Of a stretch of 56,811 nt of DNA, positions 17,889 to 55,654 are shown one piece after another. The first letter of the stretch is position 1; the number at the start of each line of letters is the position of its first letter. Both the position numbers and the translations under genes were made by a program. The notes under the pieces are model-generated. The model was given only the letters and a program-made list of their open reading frames with translations, did no database searches and had not been told where the DNA came from. Origin of the DNA: a virus (lineage: Duplodnaviria; Heunggongvirae; Uroviricota; Caudoviricetes); the IMG/VR virus record IMGVR_UViG_2698536317_000003. One strand, given 5' to 3'.

Positions 17889-18147
17889 GATTTAACCTCA
17901 TACAAAATATGATCTATGCCTCTATTTTATACAAAATGGATTTACCTCAGTGAACACATTTTGTATAAAGAAGCCAAAGGAAAGGGATAGAGCGAAGGGA
18001 CTTAAAAGGCCGGATTGACCGGAGGAAGCAAAAGAGGATAAGAAAATGAAAAACGTAAACTACCACCCCAACGAACATGAGCGCTATGCTGACTTTATCG
18101 AGCAAATGTTAAAAGCGCTGAAAAACAAAAACTAAGCGGGGTGAAAT

Positions 18148-31504: not shown

Positions 31505-31540
31505 CCTCCAACAAAGCAAAAACCCGGCGCGGGGCCGGGT
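31505..31540 (-). terminator. Intrinsic terminator immediately upstream of holin RBS (tR-prime-like position)
   Basis: ACCCGGC-GCGGG-GCCGGGT hairpin followed on the minus strand by TTTTTGCTTTGTT. Confidence 0.55.
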
Positions 31541-33917: not shown

Positions 33918-34127
33918 TTATCCTTCTTTGCCTCCCTTGAACCCCAAACACTCCGCGTATTCGTCAATGCTTAATGCTTCTTCACCTGGTGCCAGTAGTT
34001 CGAAGTATCTGGCATATAACTCAAACACCCAGGCAGGATATTTTGCGTTTGCGTTCATCTTCTTGCCCCCCCATCCGTCTTTCTGTGGCTTATATATAAC
34101 AAAATGGCACTGCCGAAACAATGCCAT
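33918..34127 (-). CDS. Hypothetical protein (69 aa)
   Basis: Start ATG lies inside a CCATTTTGTATAC motif. Confidence 0.3.
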   Translation of the reverse strand: MALFRQCHFVIYKPQKDGWGGKKMNANAKYPAWVFELYARYFELLAPGEEALSIDEYAECLGFKGGKEG

Positions 34128-34174
34128 TTTGTATACATTGTGATACGAGTCACATTTTGCGCAATTAACTTTTA

Positions 34175-35150: not shown

Positions 35151-35425
35151 TACTCTGTACCCCAGCGGTCTATGCTGATTAAAAAGTCACGGATAGCGCG
35201 GCGTTCGTCGCGCGTTGGCTTGCGCTTCCGGTAAATCTTGAAATCAAACCATTCTTTTTCTTGTTCGAAATCCAGGTCGTAAGCAAGTGCCTCAATGTAT
35301 CCGCACTCGTGATACTGGTACGCCACGCCAGCACGAACAAAAAAGCGGGTTTTATCCCGCTTGTGTTCATAGATACGCATATTCACCCCGTTAAGCAGTT
35401 GTGTAGCTGTCCACCAGCTTTTCAT
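35150..35425 (-). CDS. Hypothetical protein (91 aa)
   Basis: ORF in small-gene block. Confidence 0.35.
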   Translation of the reverse strand: MKSWWTATQLLNGVNMRIYEHKRDKTRFFVRAGVAYQYHECGYIEALAYDLDFEQEKEWFDFKIYRKRKPTRDERRAIRDFLISIDRWGTE

Positions 35426-39262: not shown

Positions 39263-39383
39263 AATGCTCTCTCCTTTTAAGGTGATTTCTACGCATTTCA
39301 GCGCTGCCGGATTTTTAAAGAGCATTTTGCTTGCTTGAAGTATACAAAATGGATACGTGTAAACAAGACGAATAGCGCCATTA

Positions 39384-39399
39384 TGTGATCCACATCACG
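39384..39399. promoter_or_regulatory. CRP-like palindrome TGTGA-N6-TCACG nested in a 29-bp palindrome
   Basis: ccattatgtgatccacatcacgcaatgg read directly (39378-39406). Confidence 0.4.
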
Positions 39400-44411: not shown

Positions 44412-44645
44412 AGCAATCCTCTGAAAATAAAGCTAACCAGCGCAGCAAATGCGCCACAAGAAACAACCACAAACAGGAAGCAAATAATGCAAAACGCGAC
44501 AGTCACAATATCCTTACCGACTTTCATGATTGGCCTCACATGTTAGTAATGAGTTTAATGATCGCTACCGTGATATAAAGAGATACGCTGAGATACAGCA
44601 CGGCGATAGATAAAGCCGCAAGCAATGCGGCAATTTTTGCAAAGC

Positions 44646-44885
44646 TCATTTGCCACCCTCCGCAATTAACTTATCAAGCCATTTGTTATTAGCCAGCCGT
44701 TCTTTGTCACTACCAAAACTGTTTCTGCTTAGAAGCTCCTCTTTTGTTAATTGCGGCCACTTATCCGTCCACCCAGCCGACGTATCGAACTCATACAGAC
44801 CGCCGTCAAAAGTAACAAAGTCATCAGCCGTGTCAGGCACTTCTTTATCAACTTCTTTTTCTTCGATCATGATTTGATACCTCAT
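44646..44885 (-). CDS. Hypothetical acidic protein (79 aa)
   Basis: ORF in early-left block. Confidence 0.35.
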   Translation of the reverse strand: MRYQIMIEEKEVDKEVPDTADDFVTFDGGLYEFDTSAGWTDKWPQLTKEELLSRNSFGSDKERLANNKWLDKLIAEGGK

Positions 44886-45163
44886 TAATCGTTAATGACC
44901 TGGCCCATACGCCCGCGATATTTGCGCATACGTGGATCGACATATTCAGGCCAGTGCATATCCGGTTTTCTTTGCAGTGGGTAAAAACTTGCCTGCCAGT
45001 TGTCGAACCATATTTGTTTTGCGTACAGGTCACTAAATCTTTTTGCCATCCGTTCCGCTGCCGTGCCGCATAAAAAAAGCCCGCGATCGATTTGATCACG
45101 GGCTTCTTTTAATACTTGCTCTTTTGTTCGTGGTTGCGGTGGCGGTTTTAGATAATCACTCAT
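44885..45163 (-). CDS. Hypothetical protein (about 92 aa; start MSDYLKPP)
   Basis: ORF downstream of ssb. Confidence 0.35.
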   Translation of the reverse strand: MSDYLKPPPQPRTKEQVLKEARDQIDRGLFLCGTAAERMAKRFSDLYAKQIWFDNWQASFYPLQRKPDMHWPEYVDPRMRKYRGRMGQVIND

Positions 45164-45179
45164 CGCTAACACATTGATT

Positions 45180-45599
45180 CTAAAAAGGAATATCGTCGTC
45201 AAAGTCCATCGAAGGCGGATTATTCCCGTTATTATTCTGCTGCTGCGGCGGCGCTTTCTGCTGCTGTCCTTGCTGCTGGCCTTGTTGGTTAACATTCATG
45301 AATTCAAATTCGTTAACCGCCACTTCTACCGCAGTCCCCTTCGTGCCGTCGTTCCGGTCATATTGCCGAACATCCAGGCGACCGCTTACCACTATTTTTC
45401 CACCCTTACGGATATGTGGCGCTAATTTTTCCGCACGCTCGCCAAATATCAGGCAAGTGATCCACATTACCCGCTTATTATCACCGTAGCCATTCGTTAC
45501 AGCTAACGGAAAACTACCAATCGCTTTTCCGTTTTGCGTGTAGCGAACTTCCATATCATTCCCGATATTACCGCCCAGTGTGATTGAATTTAAGCTCAT
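45180..45599 (-). CDS. ssb: Single-stranded DNA-binding protein
   Basis: OB-fold-like N-terminus, Gln/Gly-rich linker, C-terminal DDDIPF tail. Confidence 0.9.
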   Translation of the reverse strand: MSLNSITLGGNIGNDMEVRYTQNGKAIGSFPLAVTNGYGDNKRVMWITCLIFGERAEKLAPHIRKGGKIVVSGRLDVRQYDRNDGTKGTAVEVAVNEFEFMNVNQQGQQQGQQQKAPPQQQNNNGNNPPSMDFDDDIPF

Positions 45600-46252
45600 T
45601 AACCGATCTCCCCGTTAAGCTCTTTTAAGCGAATGTCATAAACGTCTTTCGCTTTCTGTTGCTGTTCTGAATCTTTAGGCAGTAGTTTCCAGCACTTCCC
45701 GAAGATCTCGCGTAACTTGTTAGCGTCCTGCGCTTTCGCTGCCGCATCACAGAAACGCGCTAACACCTCATCAGGATTTGGCGGCGCTTTCTGCTGCTGT
45801 GGTTTCTGATTAGGTTGTTGTTTTGGTGGGGTTTTCTGCTGGCGAGGCTGCTGCCCTGTCTGCTTAGCGTATGCGTCAGTATCAGGATCTCGCGCATCGT
45901 CAATACAGAACAATCCGTTCAAAGCATATTTACGCGCGTAACTTGATGTTGCTCCTGTTAACTGGCTTGCGTCCATTCCCTTCTTGCTTTCTTCCTCCCT
46001 GGCGTAAGCCGTTACCGCTATCTCATTCTCACCGTCGCTTAGTGTCGCAGTGGCTTTCACATAATAGCGATTGCCGATCAGGATAATTTCATCACTTACA
46101 GTCAGCGTAATACTTTGAAGCAGTGGTTTGACCGCTTCTAAAATATCCTCCGCCGACCTGTAATTGTATCCGCCGAAATTATTACGCTGATTTTTCGGCG
46201 CGTTCAGCGTTTGCTGAATCGTCCACAGTTTTTTATGTAACTCTGTTTTCAC
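45599..46252 (-). CDS. Erf-family single-strand annealing recombinase
   Basis: GYNYRSAEDILEAV-type N-terminal region; adjacent to ssb. Confidence 0.75.
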   Translation of the reverse strand: MKTELHKKLWTIQQTLNAPKNQRNNFGGYNYRSAEDILEAVKPLLQSITLTVSDEIILIGNRYYVKATATLSDGENEIAVTAYAREEESKKGMDASQLTGATSSYARKYALNGLFCIDDARDPDTDAYAKQTGQQPRQQKTPPKQQPNQKPQQQKAPPNPDEVLARFCDAAAKAQDANKLREIFGKCWKLLPKDSEQQQKAKDVYDIRLKELNGEIG

Positions 46253-46401
46253 TCTTTAATCTCCTTCGCTGTTAACACTATGTATAAGGCTTTATTCGCG
46301 GCGCTCCACATTTCGGCATCGTGAAGCATTTCCGCTACCGCAAGTTTGAATTGAAGCGCCTCGATAACCATAATGTAACCTCCGAATGTTTACATTTTGT
46401 A

Positions 46402-46692
46402 TTAATGGTAACGGACTTTATCCAGGGGTTTCCCCCCTAAATGGCGTGGTTGCGTTGCGTGGTAGTAGCTGCCGCTTTCATTTTCCGTATACCATTTTAC
46501 TGATCCTTTGCGACGTTCTTTAATGCTATTTGGTTTGCACCTTTCCTCGTTTGCAAATCGAATAGCTTTATCCACATTGTCTGTTTTATTAATTGCAGGT
46601 GATGATTTTCTTTCGTTTTCTCTTTTTATCCTTCTGCGTTCCCTGGCGTTCATTTTGCTATCACATTTTCCATACATAATTGTAACGCTCAT
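46402..46692 (-). CDS. Arginine-rich N-like putative antitermination protein
   Basis: First gene of leftward operon; N-terminal ARM-like NARERRRIKRENERK; GGAG RBS; downstream of nut-like site. Confidence 0.4.
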   Translation of the reverse strand: MSVTIMYGKCDSKMNARERRRIKRENERKSSPAINKTDNVDKAIRFANEERCKPNSIKERRKGSVKWYTENESGSYYHATQPRHLGGKPLDKVRYH

Positions 46693-46748
46693 AATCTGAT
46701 CTCCGTATATCCTTGATGAAACTTAATAAAAAATCATCTTCGTTAATT

Positions 46749-46786
46749 GCCGCACTTCCAGCGGCTGACCAGATTTTTAATGAGCG
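46749..46786 (-). promoter_or_regulatory. nutL-like site (boxA CGCTCATTAAAAAT plus boxB-like hairpin)
   Basis: Minus-strand reading CGCTCATTAAAAATCTGGTCA-GCCGC-TGGAAGT-GCGGC. Confidence 0.4.
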
Positions 46787-47041
46787 GCTTAACATCTTTC
46801 AACTAATCCCGCAATCATCGCCGTTCCCGGCGTGACCTTGCTCACTCCAAGCAAGCTGACTCGTCGCCTTGCGTGCGGTTTCGTGGGGGATGTAACGCTT
46901 TAAACACCCCATGCGCCTTGTTATCAGTGCCGCTTTCGGTCCCCCCATTGGGGAGTTACTCCACGGTTGACAAGGTGTTAAGCCTGATTTTTAAAGTGCC
47001 AGGAAGCCGCTTTTGTTACCTGCGCCCTTCCTTTGACTCGC

Positions 47042-47070
47042 AATATACGCCCCGTAAAACACCGAGTCAA
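47042..47070 (-). promoter_or_regulatory. Sigma70-like leftward early promoter (pL-like)
   Basis: Minus strand TTGACT-17 nt-TATATT; flanked by 9-bp inverted repeat TTGACTCG/CGAGTCAA and a CCATTTTGTATAC motif. Confidence 0.5.
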
Positions 47071-47160
47071 TCCATTTTGTATACTTTTTTAAAACATTTT
47101 ATATGTTATTGATATTTAAACAATAAATAACGTTTTCTGTTTACGTTTTGGTGCTTTCAT

Positions 47161-47188
47161 GGCAAAGAAAAGCCGCCATCCGGCGGCT
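47161..47188 (-). terminator. Rho-independent terminator downstream of repressor gene
   Basis: AGCCGCC-GGAT-GGCGGCT hairpin followed by TTTCTTTGCC on minus strand. Confidence 0.55.
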
Positions 47189-47193
47189 AATGT

Positions 47194-47841
47194 TTATGGC
47201 AGGTTTACGATCTTCGCATCAACTACCACGCCTATGATTTTTGATTCTGGATTCATAGGGATTGGCGGATACAGCGGATTGAGCGAACGTAAAAGCCTTT
47301 GACCTCCATCAATAATCAACTGTTTAAACGTCGGTATCTGCCCTTCCTCAAGCTGGGCTATAACCAGTTTGCCGTCAATAGCTGGCGCGTGCGGGTCCAC
47401 GAGTATCATCGTCCCCGCCGGGATGCTCAACCCCTGCGGCGCGTTCATTGATTCACCTTTGGCAACCAGCCAGTAACTATCATCTGAACAAATAACGCTA
47501 GTCGTAACGTGTGGTAATGCTGATCGCCTTGTGTCATCCATATTGTTTACTGTATCCTTCCAGTCAATAACCGGGTAACTACCTAAATCACGCGGCGGTG
47601 CGGCCTGAAGTGTATTAGAAACAGAATCATCAATGACCATACCATCATGTGTAACAGTGAACTGCCGACGACCAAGCGCCCGCATAATCCGCGCAATATC
47701 TTCAAGATTTGGCTCGCGGCGACCGTTCAGCCAGTGTGACAGGCCGCCTTTAGTTATCCCCATGAGATCTGCGAGTGAATCCTGACTCATGCCCTGCGCC
47801 CGCATGAGCTGCTTTGCTAAGTCATACCATTTTGTTTTCAT
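47194..47841 (-). CDS. CI-like repressor (HTH_XRE N-terminus, LexA/S24 peptidase-like C-terminus)
   Basis: N-terminal HTH (SQDSLADLMGITKGGLSHWLNG) and C-terminal GESM...K autocleavage-type domain. Confidence 0.85.
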   Translation of the reverse strand: MKTKWYDLAKQLMRAQGMSQDSLADLMGITKGGLSHWLNGRREPNLEDIARIMRALGRRQFTVTHDGMVIDDSVSNTLQAAPPRDLGSYPVIDWKDTVNNMDDTRRSALPHVTTSVICSDDSYWLVAKGESMNAPQGLSIPAGTMILVDPHAPAIDGKLVIAQLEEGQIPTFKQLIIDGGQRLLRSLNPLYPPIPMNPESKIIGVVVDAKIVNLP

Positions 47842-48146
47842 GTCGCTACCCTATAACCTCAAAAAGTTTGATGCAAGTCACAAAACGTGTATTTTAAGCC
47901 TTGATCTTAAAATTCCATTTTGTAAACTTGCAGACAAGGTAAGGCCATACTTGCAAAGACGCAAGGAAAAAGATAACGGAAGGCACAAAAAGGCACATAC
48001 CTTAAGCTCTTTAAAAATCCGGTGTCGCTGCGAAGCGAAAAACAAATATCACGCAACGGCGGGATCTGTTGAGCGGTCAGTCACTGCTATCTAATGCTAA
48101 TGGGATGCCCGCCCGCGCGTTCATTTTAACCATAGGAGAAAATACA
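47842..48146. promoter_or_regulatory. Divergent immunity control region (OR-like) with nutR-like element
   Basis: CTTGCA-type palindromes, CCATTTTGTAAAC motif (47915-47927), boxA-like GCTCTTTAAAAAT with GNRA hairpin TCGCT-GCGA-AGCGA (48001-48029). Confidence 0.4.
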
Positions 48147-48401
48147 ATGAGCATGAACATGATTAGCGAAGTATGGAAAGTAAAACTTAACAGCCCGATT
48201 CAAAAACTGGTCTTAATGGCTCTGGCTGAAAAGGCAGATAACCGCCGTCACGTCATGGTATCACGACAAGAAATTGCAAAAATGTGTGAACTTCCTGTTC
48301 ATACGGTACATGATGCCTTCGCCGCGTTAATGCATAAAGGGTTTGTTTGTCGTCTTGATGCGTTCAGTGATGTCTATGTAGTGATGTTACCGGAGGAATG
48401 A
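48147..48401 (+). CDS. First rightward early gene; small HTH regulator (Cro/CII-position)
   Basis: AGGAG RBS; 84 aa; stop 3 nt before replication gene start. Confidence 0.4.
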   Translation: MSMNMISEVWKVKLNSPIQKLVLMALAEKADNRRHVMVSRQEIAKMCELPVHTVHDAFAALMHKGFVCRLDAFSDVYVVMLPEE

Positions 48402-48404
48402 TCT

Positions 48405-49451
48405 ATGAAGTGGTTTAAGCATGATAGCGATGCGAACCGCGATGAAAAACTTCAAAACGTCTTGCTTGATTATGGCCTGGAAGGGTACGGGCTTTATTGG
48501 TATTGCCTCGAACTAATAACTTATGACGTAGATCAGCACAATCTAACTTTTGACCTACGACATGACGCGAGAATCATTGCGCGAAACGTCGGATCGACTG
48601 AAAAACGTATAGAAGAAATGATGAAATACTTCATCGAAATTGGTTTGTTTGAATGTTCTCAAGGCCACATAACTTGTTTAAAGTTATTGAAAAGGCTGGA
48701 CCAATCAATGACTTCTAAAAGCGCATACAGGGCAGCCATAAACACAGCGAAGGAGCAATTAAAATTAGAAAAGTTAATCAATCCAACACAAAAAGGTCAT
48801 GATAGGGTCATGACCGGGTCAGGAAAGGGTCATGAATTAGAATTAGAAGTAGAAGAAGAAAGAGAAGAAGAAAAGAAAAATATAAAAAGAAAAGAAGTCA
48901 ATCAGGACGGTGATTTCCAGGTAAGCGAGGCGGCTTATCGTTGCTTAGCCTTCTACAACGACAAGGCTGGATGCAAATGTCGTGATGCTAAGCCATTCAT
49001 CGAACTACTGACAGAAACAAAAACACGTAAAGCGTATACGGAGGATGAGATCACATTAGTGATTGAGTGGGCTTTAACGCAATGGCGTAGCCGTGGCGGA
49101 ACACCTAAACCTATCAACATTTGCCGGGTAACTAAATTTGACGGGTATCTTGCTGATGCTGAACAATGGCGCAATCTGTCAGTTACTGTAAACGCTGCCG
49201 ATGTGGTAAATGAGTTTAACATCACGTTTGATGGCCTGTTGCCACCTGCTGAACTGGATCGGGATCTTGAACGTAAAATATATGCGTTCACTGACTACCT
49301 GAAAGACAAAAGCATTAACGGATTTATCGCCTACTTTGAAGCATTCAAGAGCAAGGCTTCAGACTTTTACTTCGGCGATGGCTTCACAGCGACACTTGAT
49401 TTCCTGCTTAAACCAAAAACGCTACGCGATACACGCGCAGGCGCTCTTTGA
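48405..49451 (+). CDS. Phage replisome organiser / replication initiation protein (DUF4373-like N-terminus)
   Basis: N-terminal MKWFKHDSDANRDEKL...GLEGYGLYWYCLE signature; acidic linker. Confidence 0.6.
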   Translation: MKWFKHDSDANRDEKLQNVLLDYGLEGYGLYWYCLELITYDVDQHNLTFDLRHDARIIARNVGSTEKRIEEMMKYFIEIGLFECSQGHITCLKLLKRLDQSMTSKSAYRAAINTAKEQLKLEKLINPTQKGHDRVMTGSGKGHELELEVEEEREEEKKNIKRKEVNQDGDFQVSEAAYRCLAFYNDKAGCKCRDAKPFIELLTETKTRKAYTEDEITLVIEWALTQWRSRGGTPKPINICRVTKFDGYLADAEQWRNLSVTVNAADVVNEFNITFDGLLPPAELDRDLERKIYAFTDYLKDKSINGFIAYFEAFKSKASDFYFGDGFTATLDFLLKPKTLRDTRAGAL

Positions 49452-50593: not shown

Positions 50594-51712
50594 ATGTCAC
50601 AAAGAAAAATCAGCGATGAGCAATTGATCGCTGAATATAACAACGGTTTAACGTACAAGCAGATCGCTGAAAAATATGGCATGTCAAAACGCAACGTCGA
50701 GCGGCTAGGCGCAAAACTGGCGAAACGCGGTTTAATATCCACGCGTCGCGCACCGGGTTTTGGCGTCAATGCTGAGTCATTGCTCGTCGATAAGGATGGC
50801 AATGTGATCATGCGCTGGATTAAAACAGCCCGTGACCGCGACGAAATGGAACAGTTAATGGAAGCGGCCCGCGACGCTTTCACGGATGAAATACCACGCG
50901 CGGAGGCTGTGCCAGTGCCTGAAATTGATTTTCAAAAAAGCCTAGCCCTTTATCCGGTGTTTGATCTGCATATCGGGGCGCTTGCTCATAAAGCTGAATG
51001 CGGCGAGAGCTACGACACTGGGATCGCTGAGCGCGTGTTGAATGACTTCTTTGACTACGCTGTTGGCGCTGCTCCGATGTCTGAAAAAGCCGTACTGCTC
51101 CTCGGTGGCGATCTGCTTCATTCTGACGGTATGGTCCCGGTGACGCCAATAAGTGGGCACATTCTTGATCAAGATAGTCGCTACGCAAAACTTGTTTATG
51201 TGGCGATCCGGTCTGTCCGGCGGGCGGTAGGTAAAATGTTGTTAAATCATAAGGATGTTGAAATCCAGGTGTTATCAGGCAATCACGATCAGTCTGGTAT
51301 GATTTGGCTACGTGCGGCGCTGGCGGCTTTTTACGAAGATGAACCGCGCGTGACGGTTGATGTGTCACCTGCTATCGTCCACCACACGCAGTACGGTAAA
51401 ACATTTCTTGCTTACCACCACGGGCACACTATCAAAAAGCCAGAGAATTTATTGGCTGCTTGCATCTCTGACTGGCGGGATGATTTCGGGAAGTCAGTTG
51501 CTGTTTACGCCCACTGCGGGCACTGGCATCATCAACGGCTGATTGAATCATCGTTGGGCGTTGTTGAGTATCACGGCACGTTAGCCGGTAAAGACGCTTA
51601 CTCAACTAATGGCGGCTGGCGGTCACGTCGTATGGCGGCGGTGATTATTTACAGCCAGGATCATGGGGAGATCGGGCGCTTTGTTTATTACCCTGAATAC
51701 TCCATTTTGTAA
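50594..51712 (+). CDS. HTH-domain protein fused to calcineurin-like metallophosphoesterase domain
   Basis: N-terminal HTH (LTYKQIAEKYGMSKRNVERL); phosphoesterase motifs DLHIG, GGDLLHSDG, GNHDQ, GHWHH. Confidence 0.55.
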   Translation: MSQRKISDEQLIAEYNNGLTYKQIAEKYGMSKRNVERLGAKLAKRGLISTRRAPGFGVNAESLLVDKDGNVIMRWIKTARDRDEMEQLMEAARDAFTDEIPRAEAVPVPEIDFQKSLALYPVFDLHIGALAHKAECGESYDTGIAERVLNDFFDYAVGAAPMSEKAVLLLGGDLLHSDGMVPVTPISGHILDQDSRYAKLVYVAIRSVRRAVGKMLLNHKDVEIQVLSGNHDQSGMIWLRAALAAFYEDEPRVTVDVSPAIVHHTQYGKTFLAYHHGHTIKKPENLLAACISDWRDDFGKSVAVYAHCGHWHHQRLIESSLGVVEYHGTLAGKDAYSTNGGWRSRRMAAVIIYSQDHGEIGRFVYYPEYSIL

Positions 51713-51730
51713 ACCGGAGGTAATGACATA

Positions 51731-55436: not shown

Positions 55437-55654
55437 TGGATAAGATCGGGACAATACTTATTAACCGTGAGCAAGTGCAAAAAATGTTAGGCGGGCTTAG
55501 CAAGTCCGCCTTTTTTAAGCTCGTTAAAAAATGGAAAGAAGCGGGAACTCCTTTCCCTGAACCTGTAAAGGGGATGCCAGCATTAAAGCGCGGGGGATCT
55601 CTTTACCGTTATCAGGACGTTATTTCATTTTGTAAATCGATGGGCTTCATGTAG
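55436..55654 (+). CDS. Excisionase-like / small DNA-binding protein
   Basis: 72-aa ORF adjacent to and converging on the integrase gene. Confidence 0.45.
   Translation: MDKIGTILINREQVQKMLGGLSKSAFFKLVKKWKEAGTPFPEPVKGMPALKRGGSLYRYQDVISFCKSMGFM

Follow-up and report, generated by a model that had tools for sequence, protein, structure and literature searches.

Organization of the early region

The 56,811-nucleotide (nt) viral sequence IMGVR_UViG_2698536317_000003, here called the window, carries on its minus strand an open reading frame (ORF) for an arginine-rich protein of 96 residues, which we refer to as Gp17-like after its counterpart in phage mEp021, and which lies downstream of a CI-type repressor gene, an early promoter and a candidate nut site composed of boxA and boxB (Table 1). 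Beyond the repressor gene, a second boxA and boxB precede the first gene of the replication-side operon on the plus strand, and a third pair is located further along the minus strand. The segment 46300-48200 matches mEp515, mEp010 and mEp021 at 92-94% DNA identity over 97-100% of the query (megablast), and the order repressor, gp17, kil-like, erf, ssb is the same in the window and in mEp021. This identity, together with 43 related IMG/VR contigs of ~54 kb, places the window genome in the mEpimmI group as a prophage-like copy that is none of the published isolates; it differs from mEp021 in allelic detail only, with a repressor region ~92% identical and a gp17-side boxA ending in ...TTAAAAAT where mEp021 has ...TTAACAAT. 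As judged from sequence comparison, the region is the early antitermination switch of an mEp021-group E. coli prophage, consisting of arginine-rich Gp17 and RNA nut sites.

The near-consensus promoter that a sequence-only reading of this stretch had proposed ahead of the gp17-like gene holds up, being the best sigma-70 match in 44500-49000; it lies ~100 nt past the terminator of the repressor transcript, and in 12 aligned relatives both hexamers are invariant and the spacer is variable. The transcript leader is ~340 nt long, and a GGAG sequence stands 8 nt ahead of the ATG of the gp17-like gene. The repressor gene matches Pfam HTH_3 (E 5e-13), Peptidase_S24 (E 4.4e-19) and PHROG 4 (E 1.8e-41), and its terminator is annotated in mEp021, with the stem kept in relatives.

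Table 1. Features of the gp17 early region and of related elements in the window
Feature	Position	Strand	Basis or remark
gp17-like gene, predicted 96-residue N-type antiterminator	46402..46692	-	Gp17 identity, PHROG 271, hhalign
Early promoter of gp17 operon, TTGACT-17-TATATT	47042..47070	-	10/12 sigma-70 match
boxA, gp17-proximal nut (nutR1), CGCTCATTAAAAAT	46773..46786	-	Conserved in all relatives as GCTC(A/T)TTAA(A/C/T)AAT
boxB, gp17-proximal nut, GCCGC-UGGAAGU-GCGGC	46749..46765	-	Folds alone at -10.1 kcal/mol
boxA, replication-side nut (nutL), GCTCTTTAAAAAT	48006..48018	+	Exact match; conserved in all relatives
boxB, replication-side nut, UCGCU-GCGA-AGCGA	48025..48038	+	Folds alone at -6.5 kcal/mol; 6 nt after boxA
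boxA, third nut (nutR2), TGCTCTTTAAAAAT	39311..39324	-	Exact 13-mer; conserved in 34 distinct relatives
boxB, third nut, GCGC-UGAAAU-GCGU	39291..39304	-	Folds alone at -5.5 kcal/mol
GC-rich structured leader insert, ~210 nt	46802..47012	-	Present in 23 of 30 distinct leader variants
CI-type repressor gene (helix-turn-helix and S24 peptidase), homologue of mEp021 gp15 (Rep021)	47194..47841	-	Pfam, PHROG, mEp021 annotation
Intrinsic terminator of repressor transcript (mEp021 TERM_1)	47171..47188	-	AGCCGCCGGATGGCGGCT then TTTCTTTG, 7-bp stem
Candidate intrinsic terminator in gp17 operon (mEp021 TERM_2)	44615..44631	-	GCCGCATTGCTTGCGGC then TTTATC
Further candidate intrinsic terminators	35362..35343 and 31540..31522	-	
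Further candidate intrinsic terminator	55489-55511	+	
Candidate divergent early promoter, TTGATC-16-TAAACT	47901..47928	+	Read from sequence; putative
First gene after replication-side nut (winged-helix / replication-initiator N-terminal-like, mEp021 gp14)	48147..48401	+	PHROG 4617 E 6.4e-20; mEp021 annotation
Operator-like 13-mer CCATTTTGTATAC	47072..47084	+	Exact copy abutting -35 of gp17 promoter; invariant in relatives
Further CCATTTTGTATAC-type sites	47915-47927, 39340-39352, 34124-34136, 17927-17968, 51702-51714		Plus 14 weaker sites
Candidate third early promoter, TTGTTT-16-TATACT	39366..39339	-	Conserved in 34 relatives; putative function
CRP-like site, CGTGA-N6-TCACA	39399..39384	-	Centred near -60 of candidate third promoter

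The Gp17-like protein and the N family

The window protein is 92.7% identical to mEp021 Gp17 (mEp021_17) and 97.9% identical to the homologues in mEp010 and MagusPhagus, the latter annotated as 'anti-termination protein N-like'. The arginine-rich N-terminus attributed earlier to a 96-residue first gene is indeed encoded by ORF 46692..46402 (-), with NARERRRIKRENERK at residues 15-29. Arginines 17, 19, 20 and 24, described in PMC11893012 as fully conserved across 48 genomes, are all present in the window protein, as is R21, and R17, R20 and R24 are invariant across 16 family members. The C-terminus of the family is strongly conserved and aromatic (W67, Y68, Y95, H96).

Profile comparisons support membership of the window protein in the lambda-type N family (PHROG 271). 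It matches PHROG 271 over its full length (E 1.9e-12), and the same PHROG matches lambda N (4e-23), P22 gp24 (7e-40) and HK629 N (9e-34). Alignment with known N proteins agreed with the N-like assignment of the sequence-only reading: when a Gp17 profile of 16 proteins was compared with one built from eight lambdoid N proteins, hhalign gave a probability of 89% (E 2.3e-6, 69 columns), and among single proteins phage DE3, with its N of the phage-21 type, supplied the best partner (BLASTP E 4e-4, 30% identity over 99 residues). The hhalign comparison with P22 gp24 alone was weak, a clear answer coming only from the profile of several N proteins; the window protein gave no match to PF11438 (Pfam N36), and no NCBIfam model was found for it.

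The family is narrow: when 1.84 billion representatives were searched exhaustively with HMMER, only four proteins emerged, namely the family itself, a fragment, P0032 and P0031; the last, a 3778-residue repetitive HYR/DUF11 surface protein, was rejected as a spurious repeat match, and P0032 (115 residues, E 7e-8) is the one further homologue. In the AlphaFold2 model of the window protein (pLDDT, the predicted local distance difference test score, of 57) the most confident part is a helix at residues 16-30 and the rest has low confidence; we take a predicted helix in such a chain to fit a largely disordered N-type protein.

boxA and boxB at three nut sites

Searching the window with the boxA 13-mer at no more than one mismatch gave four copies versus 0.20 expected, a number reached in none of 100 shuffles; at no more than two mismatches the count (five versus 3.1 expected) was not significant. 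Three of the four point in the direction of local transcription, each with a G+C-stemmed hairpin 6-7 nt further on, and the fourth, a boxA-like 13-mer at 46999..46987 (-), has no boxB after it. The boxA pattern in the window is GCTC(T/A)TTAAAAAT, and relatives carry TGCTCTTTAACAAT, which we take to be the E. coli rrn boxA consensus. The sequence-only reading had placed a hairpin 12 nt after the gp17-side boxA, which is correct when counted from the 9-nt boxA core and corresponds to 7 nt from the 14-mer; the second boxA with a GNRA hairpin, which it had put at 48001-48029, is also present, but at 48006-48038, so that the earlier end coordinate cuts the hairpin in half. It had missed the third nut site and the fourth boxA-like 13-mer, as well as the ~250-nt distance between promoter and boxA, with the structured insert that separates them.

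Folding of both nut sites flanking the repressor gene gave the expected hairpins, each folding on its own, as does that of the third site. None of the boxB hairpins, taken alone, is significantly more stable than shuffled sequences (z from -0.6 to -1.7); because hairpins of this size are too small to stand out from shuffles, evidence for boxB has to be comparative. Absence of boxA from relatives had been named as one of the findings that would count against the N/nut assignment. Each of the 43 related viral loci in IMG/VR has boxA and boxB, both on the gp17 side and on the replication side as far as its sequence extends, and so does a distant relative with a syntenic locus. For the third site, 34 distinct variants were recovered.

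Across eight distinct site variants, four pairs of the boxB stem are 100% paired and three of the four show double changes; the covariation score was reached in none of 500 shuffles, and every slid register failed. Within the loop, U, G and A never change, and GCGA, GUGA, GCAA and GAAA all conform to GNRA. Complete pairing together with covariation thus defines the boxB of the mEpimmI group, on comparative grounds, as a 4-5 bp stem closing U-GNRA-(A/U), and indicates that selection maintains boxB as a genuine RNA hairpin whose loop is GNRA-like. Variation at the individual sites follows the same pattern. The gp17-side boxB is kept in long-leader and short-leader relatives alike, and divergent relatives exchange it for UGCAC-UGAAAU-GUGCA or GCUAC-UGAAAU-GUAGC, with the UGAAAU loop unchanged; on the replication side the loops in the window and its relatives are GCGA, GUGA and GCAA; the third nut, with a GAAA loop, reads TGCTCTTTAAAAAT-CCGGCA-GCGC-UGAAAU-GCGU at 39324..39291 (-), and the outer pair of its boxB is G.U, A-U or C-G across relatives. 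The two boxB hairpins noted earlier do differ in sequence, a fact that had been thought to weaken the parallel with lambda, but this concern is resolved, as all sites share a G+C stem and a U-GNRA-(A/U) loop or a version one base longer.

These data also bear on the possibility that an AT-rich motif, small hairpins and a basic peptide coincide by chance and have no regulatory role. The insignificant stability of single hairpins and the boxA count at two mismatches would be compatible with such a coincidence, but it would leave unexplained the excess of boxA sites at one mismatch, the occurrence of sites at the same positions in all relatives, the covarying stems with an invariant loop and the homology of the protein to N proteins. 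On account of conservation and covariation we regard chance as excluded for all practical purposes.

A further hairpin upstream, CGCCG-GGAA-CGGCG (46832..46819), was considered as the real boxB and rejected, being 5' of boxA and absent from short-leader relatives. Separately, the exact 17-mer GCTCTTTAAAAATCCGG was found in five viral contigs outside the Gp17 set (L070, L071, L072, L116 and L120), where it is followed by ATATCAACCAT(A/C)ACAAATTACTTCGGTT and no obvious boxB hairpin is seen.

Probable early antitermination by the Gp17-like protein

PMC11893012 (Negrete-Mendez et al. 2025), with reference to Valencia-Toxqui et al. 2023 (Arch Virol 168:92), attributes early antitermination in mEp021 to Gp17, described as N-lambda-like. 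Gp17 acts there on nutR1 and nutL, which lie upstream of gp17 and of the repressor gene, respectively, and on nutR2, downstream of gp32; the mEpimmI group is Nus-dependent though not lambdoid. Gp17-dependent antitermination, the three nut sites and the Nus dependence of the phage group have thus been shown by others in mEp021. The three nut sites of the window occupy the published relative positions, as compared by described position: one is ahead of gp17, one between the repressor gene and the replication operon, and one past the methyltransferase gene. Together with protein identity, gene order and the conserved arginines, they mark the module as the same system. We conclude that the module is very probably the lambda-type N/nut early antitermination system of an mEpimmI-group (mEp021-like) temperate coliphage, working as in mEp021. 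For the window copy, the identical mode of action, the choice of target terminators and the reading of boxB as a true tetraloop are deduced from sequence identity and comparison. The lambda-like N/nut signature noted in the sequence-only reading is confirmed as an observation, and its interpretation is supported by family homology, by boxA and boxB in all relatives, by covarying stems and by a 92.7%-identical published Gp17. The module belongs to a published, experimentally characterised system: Gp17 and three nut sites have been described for near-identical phages, and the main finding adds no new biology.

By analogy with lambda, the following sequence of events may be envisaged. Once the repressor leaves its operators, host RNA polymerase would start at 47070..47042 (-) and transcribe the ~340-nt leader, which ends in the nut site (boxA 46786..46773, boxB 46765..46749) and is followed by gp17. 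The arginine-rich helix of Gp17 (residues ~15-30) would bind the GNRA-type boxB loop on the nascent RNA, boxA would recruit NusB and S10, and with NusA and NusG the polymerase would become resistant to termination, passing downstream terminators such as 44631..44615 into recombination and later genes. Gp17 would also act at the nut of the divergent replication operon (48006-48038, +) and at the third nut (39324..39291, -).

Arginine-rich boxB binders can act either way, HK022 Nun being the known example of the opposite effect, so Gp17 could instead be a Nun-like exclusion factor that binds boxB and arrests or terminates transcription, for example that of a competing phage. The sign of the effect is not given by sequence alone, and the strongly conserved aromatic C-terminus would suit a Nun-like protein; the same C-terminal part, however, aligns with the phage-21-type N, and the gene occupies the N position as the first of its operon. 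Moreover, the cognate nut sites are found in the three early transcription units of the phage itself, directly after its own promoters, whereas a factor of the HK022 Nun type would be expected to terminate transcription at the nut sites of another phage and to have no cognate nut sites in its own early operons. Given these sites and the antitermination reported for the 92.7%-identical mEp021 Gp17 in PMC11893012, a Nun-like role is highly improbable.

Several observations weigh against antitermination by an N-type protein at these sites. In the window the loop of the gp17-proximal boxB (UGGAAGU) has 7 nt, one base more than the 6-nt U-GNRA-W elsewhere; relative L004 has a stem mismatch in its gp17-side hairpin; and promoter and nut site are ~250 nt apart in the window, compared with ~50 nt in short-leader relatives. 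On the protein side, pairwise similarity to lambda N alone is negligible (hhalign), no PDB chain matched the sequence profile of the family at E <= 10, and the window protein scores 17.1 bits on PF25694 (Pfam N_peptide), below the cut-off of 27.9. This model is matched by 14 of 16 Gp17-family members, all sub-threshold; since lambda N itself scores at the same level (16.4 bits), PF25694 is specific for proteins of the P22 type. Published nut coordinates were compared by relative position only, the supplements of PMC11893012 being without nut-site sequences, and the evidence for the window copy comes from sequence only.

Operon content and reach of transcription

Next after the gp17-like gene come a 40-residue ORF resembling Kil, a gene for an ERF recombinase and one of the ssb type, the last assigned by synteny with mEp021 gp20, a content that by analogy is that of a lambda pL-type operon. 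Published naming runs opposite to the 'pL-like' label given earlier to the promoter, with the gp17 operon called 'right' (nutR1, nutR2) and the replication side assigned nutL. The 40-residue ORF directly after gp17 (46249-46371, -) has sub-threshold matches to lambda Kil (Pfam E 2.9e-4, PHROG 2055 E 1.7e-3); a Kil-like ORF at this place strengthens the parallel with the lambda pL operon.

A terminator is annotated in mEp021 at the same position as 44631..44615, which is a likely target of read-through. From gp17 down to ~1600, nearly all genes are on the minus strand, and with this near-uniform gene orientation the gp17 operon could feed far into the genome. The third nut site could then make sense as a place where the complex is reloaded, or it could serve a third promoter.

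On the replication side, the candidate divergent promoter falls below the threshold of the promoter scan; its TTGA and GTAAACT are kept in 25 relatives, with a variable spacer. The 5' untranslated region between boxB and the first gene (48057-48120, +) is almost invariant in 25 relatives and folds into a long hairpin, GGCGGGAUC...GAUGCCCGCC (GGCGGG...CCCGCC), in which relative L041 has a compensatory change from G-C to U-A.

A structured insert in the gp17 leader

The distance between the gp17 promoter and its nut site is due to a GC-rich insert (55% GC, versus 37-40% in the flanks), which is carried by the window, mEp021 and most other relatives; in the seven of 30 variants without it, only ~50 nt separate boxA and the start site. 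Direct repeats of 17 nt that resemble boxA, GCACTTTAAAAATCAGG and GCTCATTAAAAATCTGG, flank the insert, which starts with the pseudo-boxA GCACTTTAAAAAT (46999..46987). Just inside the 17-mers, a 9-bp inverted repeat (GGCUUAACA / UGUUAAGCC) forms a closing helix of 46984..46976 with 46794..46786. Recombination at the boxA repeat seems to account for gain or loss of the insert. In three loci that were examined it is always located between the repressor gene and the gp17 homologue. Of 5426 E. coli genomes, 31 carry the insert, each in a single copy, and PGAP annotates nothing at this place. We considered a dispersed repeat or miniature inverted-repeat transposable element, which is at odds with the single copy per genome and with the lack of a second copy in the window. 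Searching GTDB species genomes with a 20-mer of the insert gave four matches in unrelated taxa, taken as chance (about one match expected in 596 Gb, an estimate).

The fold of the whole leader has z = -3.45, with none of 100 shuffles as stable, and the insert is nearly invariant, even in relatives with a different boxB. One of its hairpins (46855..46837) has three compensatory pairs in RM9245-type prophages, a single lineage. Rfam searches at permissive thresholds of 45500-49000 and of the leader alone gave matches at chance level only. A small ORF in the insert (46799-46948; mEp021_16) was rejected as a gene, as its first ATG is frame-shifted in most relatives; as we read the alignment, the RM9245-type substitutions would alter residues of this ORF yet preserve the RNA helix.

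These properties raise the question of whether antitermination in the gp17 operon could be mainly RNA-driven, with the ~210-nt insert acting like HK022 put and boxA, boxB and the arginine-rich motif being secondary. The unusual stability of the leader, its near-invariance, the three compensatory pairs in one helix and the location directly downstream of the promoter are all features that such an element would have. Yet the insert has no Rfam match and no counterpart at the other two nut sites, it is missing in seven of 30 distinct leader variants that retain the promoter, the nut site and gp17, and antitermination in mEp021 is reported to be Gp17-dependent in PMC11893012. Since a quarter of the variants lack the structured leader, as do the other two nuts, an RNA-only mechanism is very unlikely as the main one, and Gp17 acting at the nut sites remains the preferred explanation. 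The insert might nevertheless be the only part of the module that holds something new. That it is an undescribed cis-acting structured RNA module tuning Gp17 synthesis or nut availability is a tentative and rather improbable suggestion; it could do so, for example, by offering a site for processing, by stabilising the transcript or by acting as a boxA decoy.

Operator-like repeats and a CRP-like site

The 13-mer CCATTTTGTATAC, an exact copy of which abuts the gp17 promoter, occurs across the window at 20 sites with no more than two mismatches, compared with 1.8 expected and with none of 100 shuffles reaching 20. The copy at 47915-47927 overlaps the -10 element of the candidate divergent promoter and another lies over the -10 of the candidate third promoter, so that exact or near-exact 13-mers adjoin or overlap the candidate early promoters ahead of all three nut sites. 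Inverted pairs are present in intergenic regions at ~17.9 kb and ~34.1 kb, and one copy where two genes meet at ~51.7 kb. A distant relative, L129, has ATACAAAATGG at the place that CCATTTTGTATAC occupies in the window. The 13-mer is a good candidate operator for the CI-type repressor, which would then have additional sites beyond the immunity region.

Ahead of the third nut, 34 relatives keep TTGTT-16-TATACT with a variable spacer and (C/T)GTGA-N6-TCACA with variable N6. The layout resembles the pattern of a class I CRP-dependent promoter, and with both the promoter and the CRP-like site conserved, the third nut may belong to a transcription unit of its own that is CRP-activated and repressor-controlled. 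The leader insert, the dispersed 13-mer and the CRP-like site may be new.

Comparison with lambdoid N systems and a distant relative

Common to lambda and the window module are an arginine-rich motif at the N-terminus, early transcripts that carry boxA and then boxB in both divergent operons, the N gene as the first of the recombination-side operon, Nus-factor dependence and assignment of both proteins to PHROG 271; the extended boxA is similar as well (CGCTCTTAAAAAT in lambda nutL, CGCTCATTAAAAAT in the window). Apart from the negligible pairwise similarity of the proteins, the two systems differ in that lambda nutL boxB, GCCCU-GAAGA-AGGGC, has the pentaloop GAAGA, whereas the window has a 4-5 bp stem and U-GNRA-(A/U); that the window has three nut sites and lambda two; that no cro-like gene precedes the replication-side nut of the window; and that the window gp17 operon continues, without a change of strand, into late genes.

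Among lambdoid N proteins, the nearest in sequence is the phage-21 type (DE3), with 30% full-length identity and a VTI(V/M) start, a DKA..RCK middle and a C-terminal (Y/W)Y...LG(S/G)KPL shared with Gp17. Its boxA, GCTCTTTAACA, is a further likeness, whereas its boxB is a longer, CUCAACC-UAA-CCGUUGAG-like hairpin with no GNRA tetraloop. For P22 gp24 the resemblance is at the N-terminus, MTVITYGKS..NAKTRR matching MSVTIMYGKC..NARERR, and in the boxB stem, GCGCU...AGCGC, which is similar to the window-type (U/G)CGCU...AGCG(A/U); the pentaloop GACAA (GCGCU-GACAA-AGCGC) and the C-terminal half of gp24 (LPGVALYAAGHRKSKQITAR), unrelated to that of Gp17, set it apart.

The one further homologue, P0032, is encoded in the syntenic metagenomic contig L129 (1650-3010), which carries an S24 repressor gene, the N-like gene, a 39-residue ORF, ERF and SSB. 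Following the repressor terminator and a promoter preceded by ATACAAAATGG, L129 has the nut GCTCTTTAACAAA-ATGGA-CGCU-GAAA-AGCG; on the other side, after a cro-like gene that is lacking in the window, it has CGCTCTTTAACAAT-CTGGA-UUGCU-GAAA-AGCAA, in the position of lambda nutR. Both hairpins have the form stem-GAAA-stem after the boxA GCTCTTTAACAA, and the P0032 locus therefore extends the tetraloop boxB and the two-armed layout beyond the mEpimmI group.

Implications

The outcome confirms that an N/nut module is recognisable from sequence alone even when the phage is not lambdoid. The comparative gains are modest and comprise a U-GNRA-(A/U) boxB backed by covariation, an N-like protein closest to the phage-21 type and the same logic in a distant syntenic relative. 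The leader insert, the dispersed 13-mer and the CRP-like site, as far as their roles can be deduced, could explain how gut prophages wire three early transcription units.

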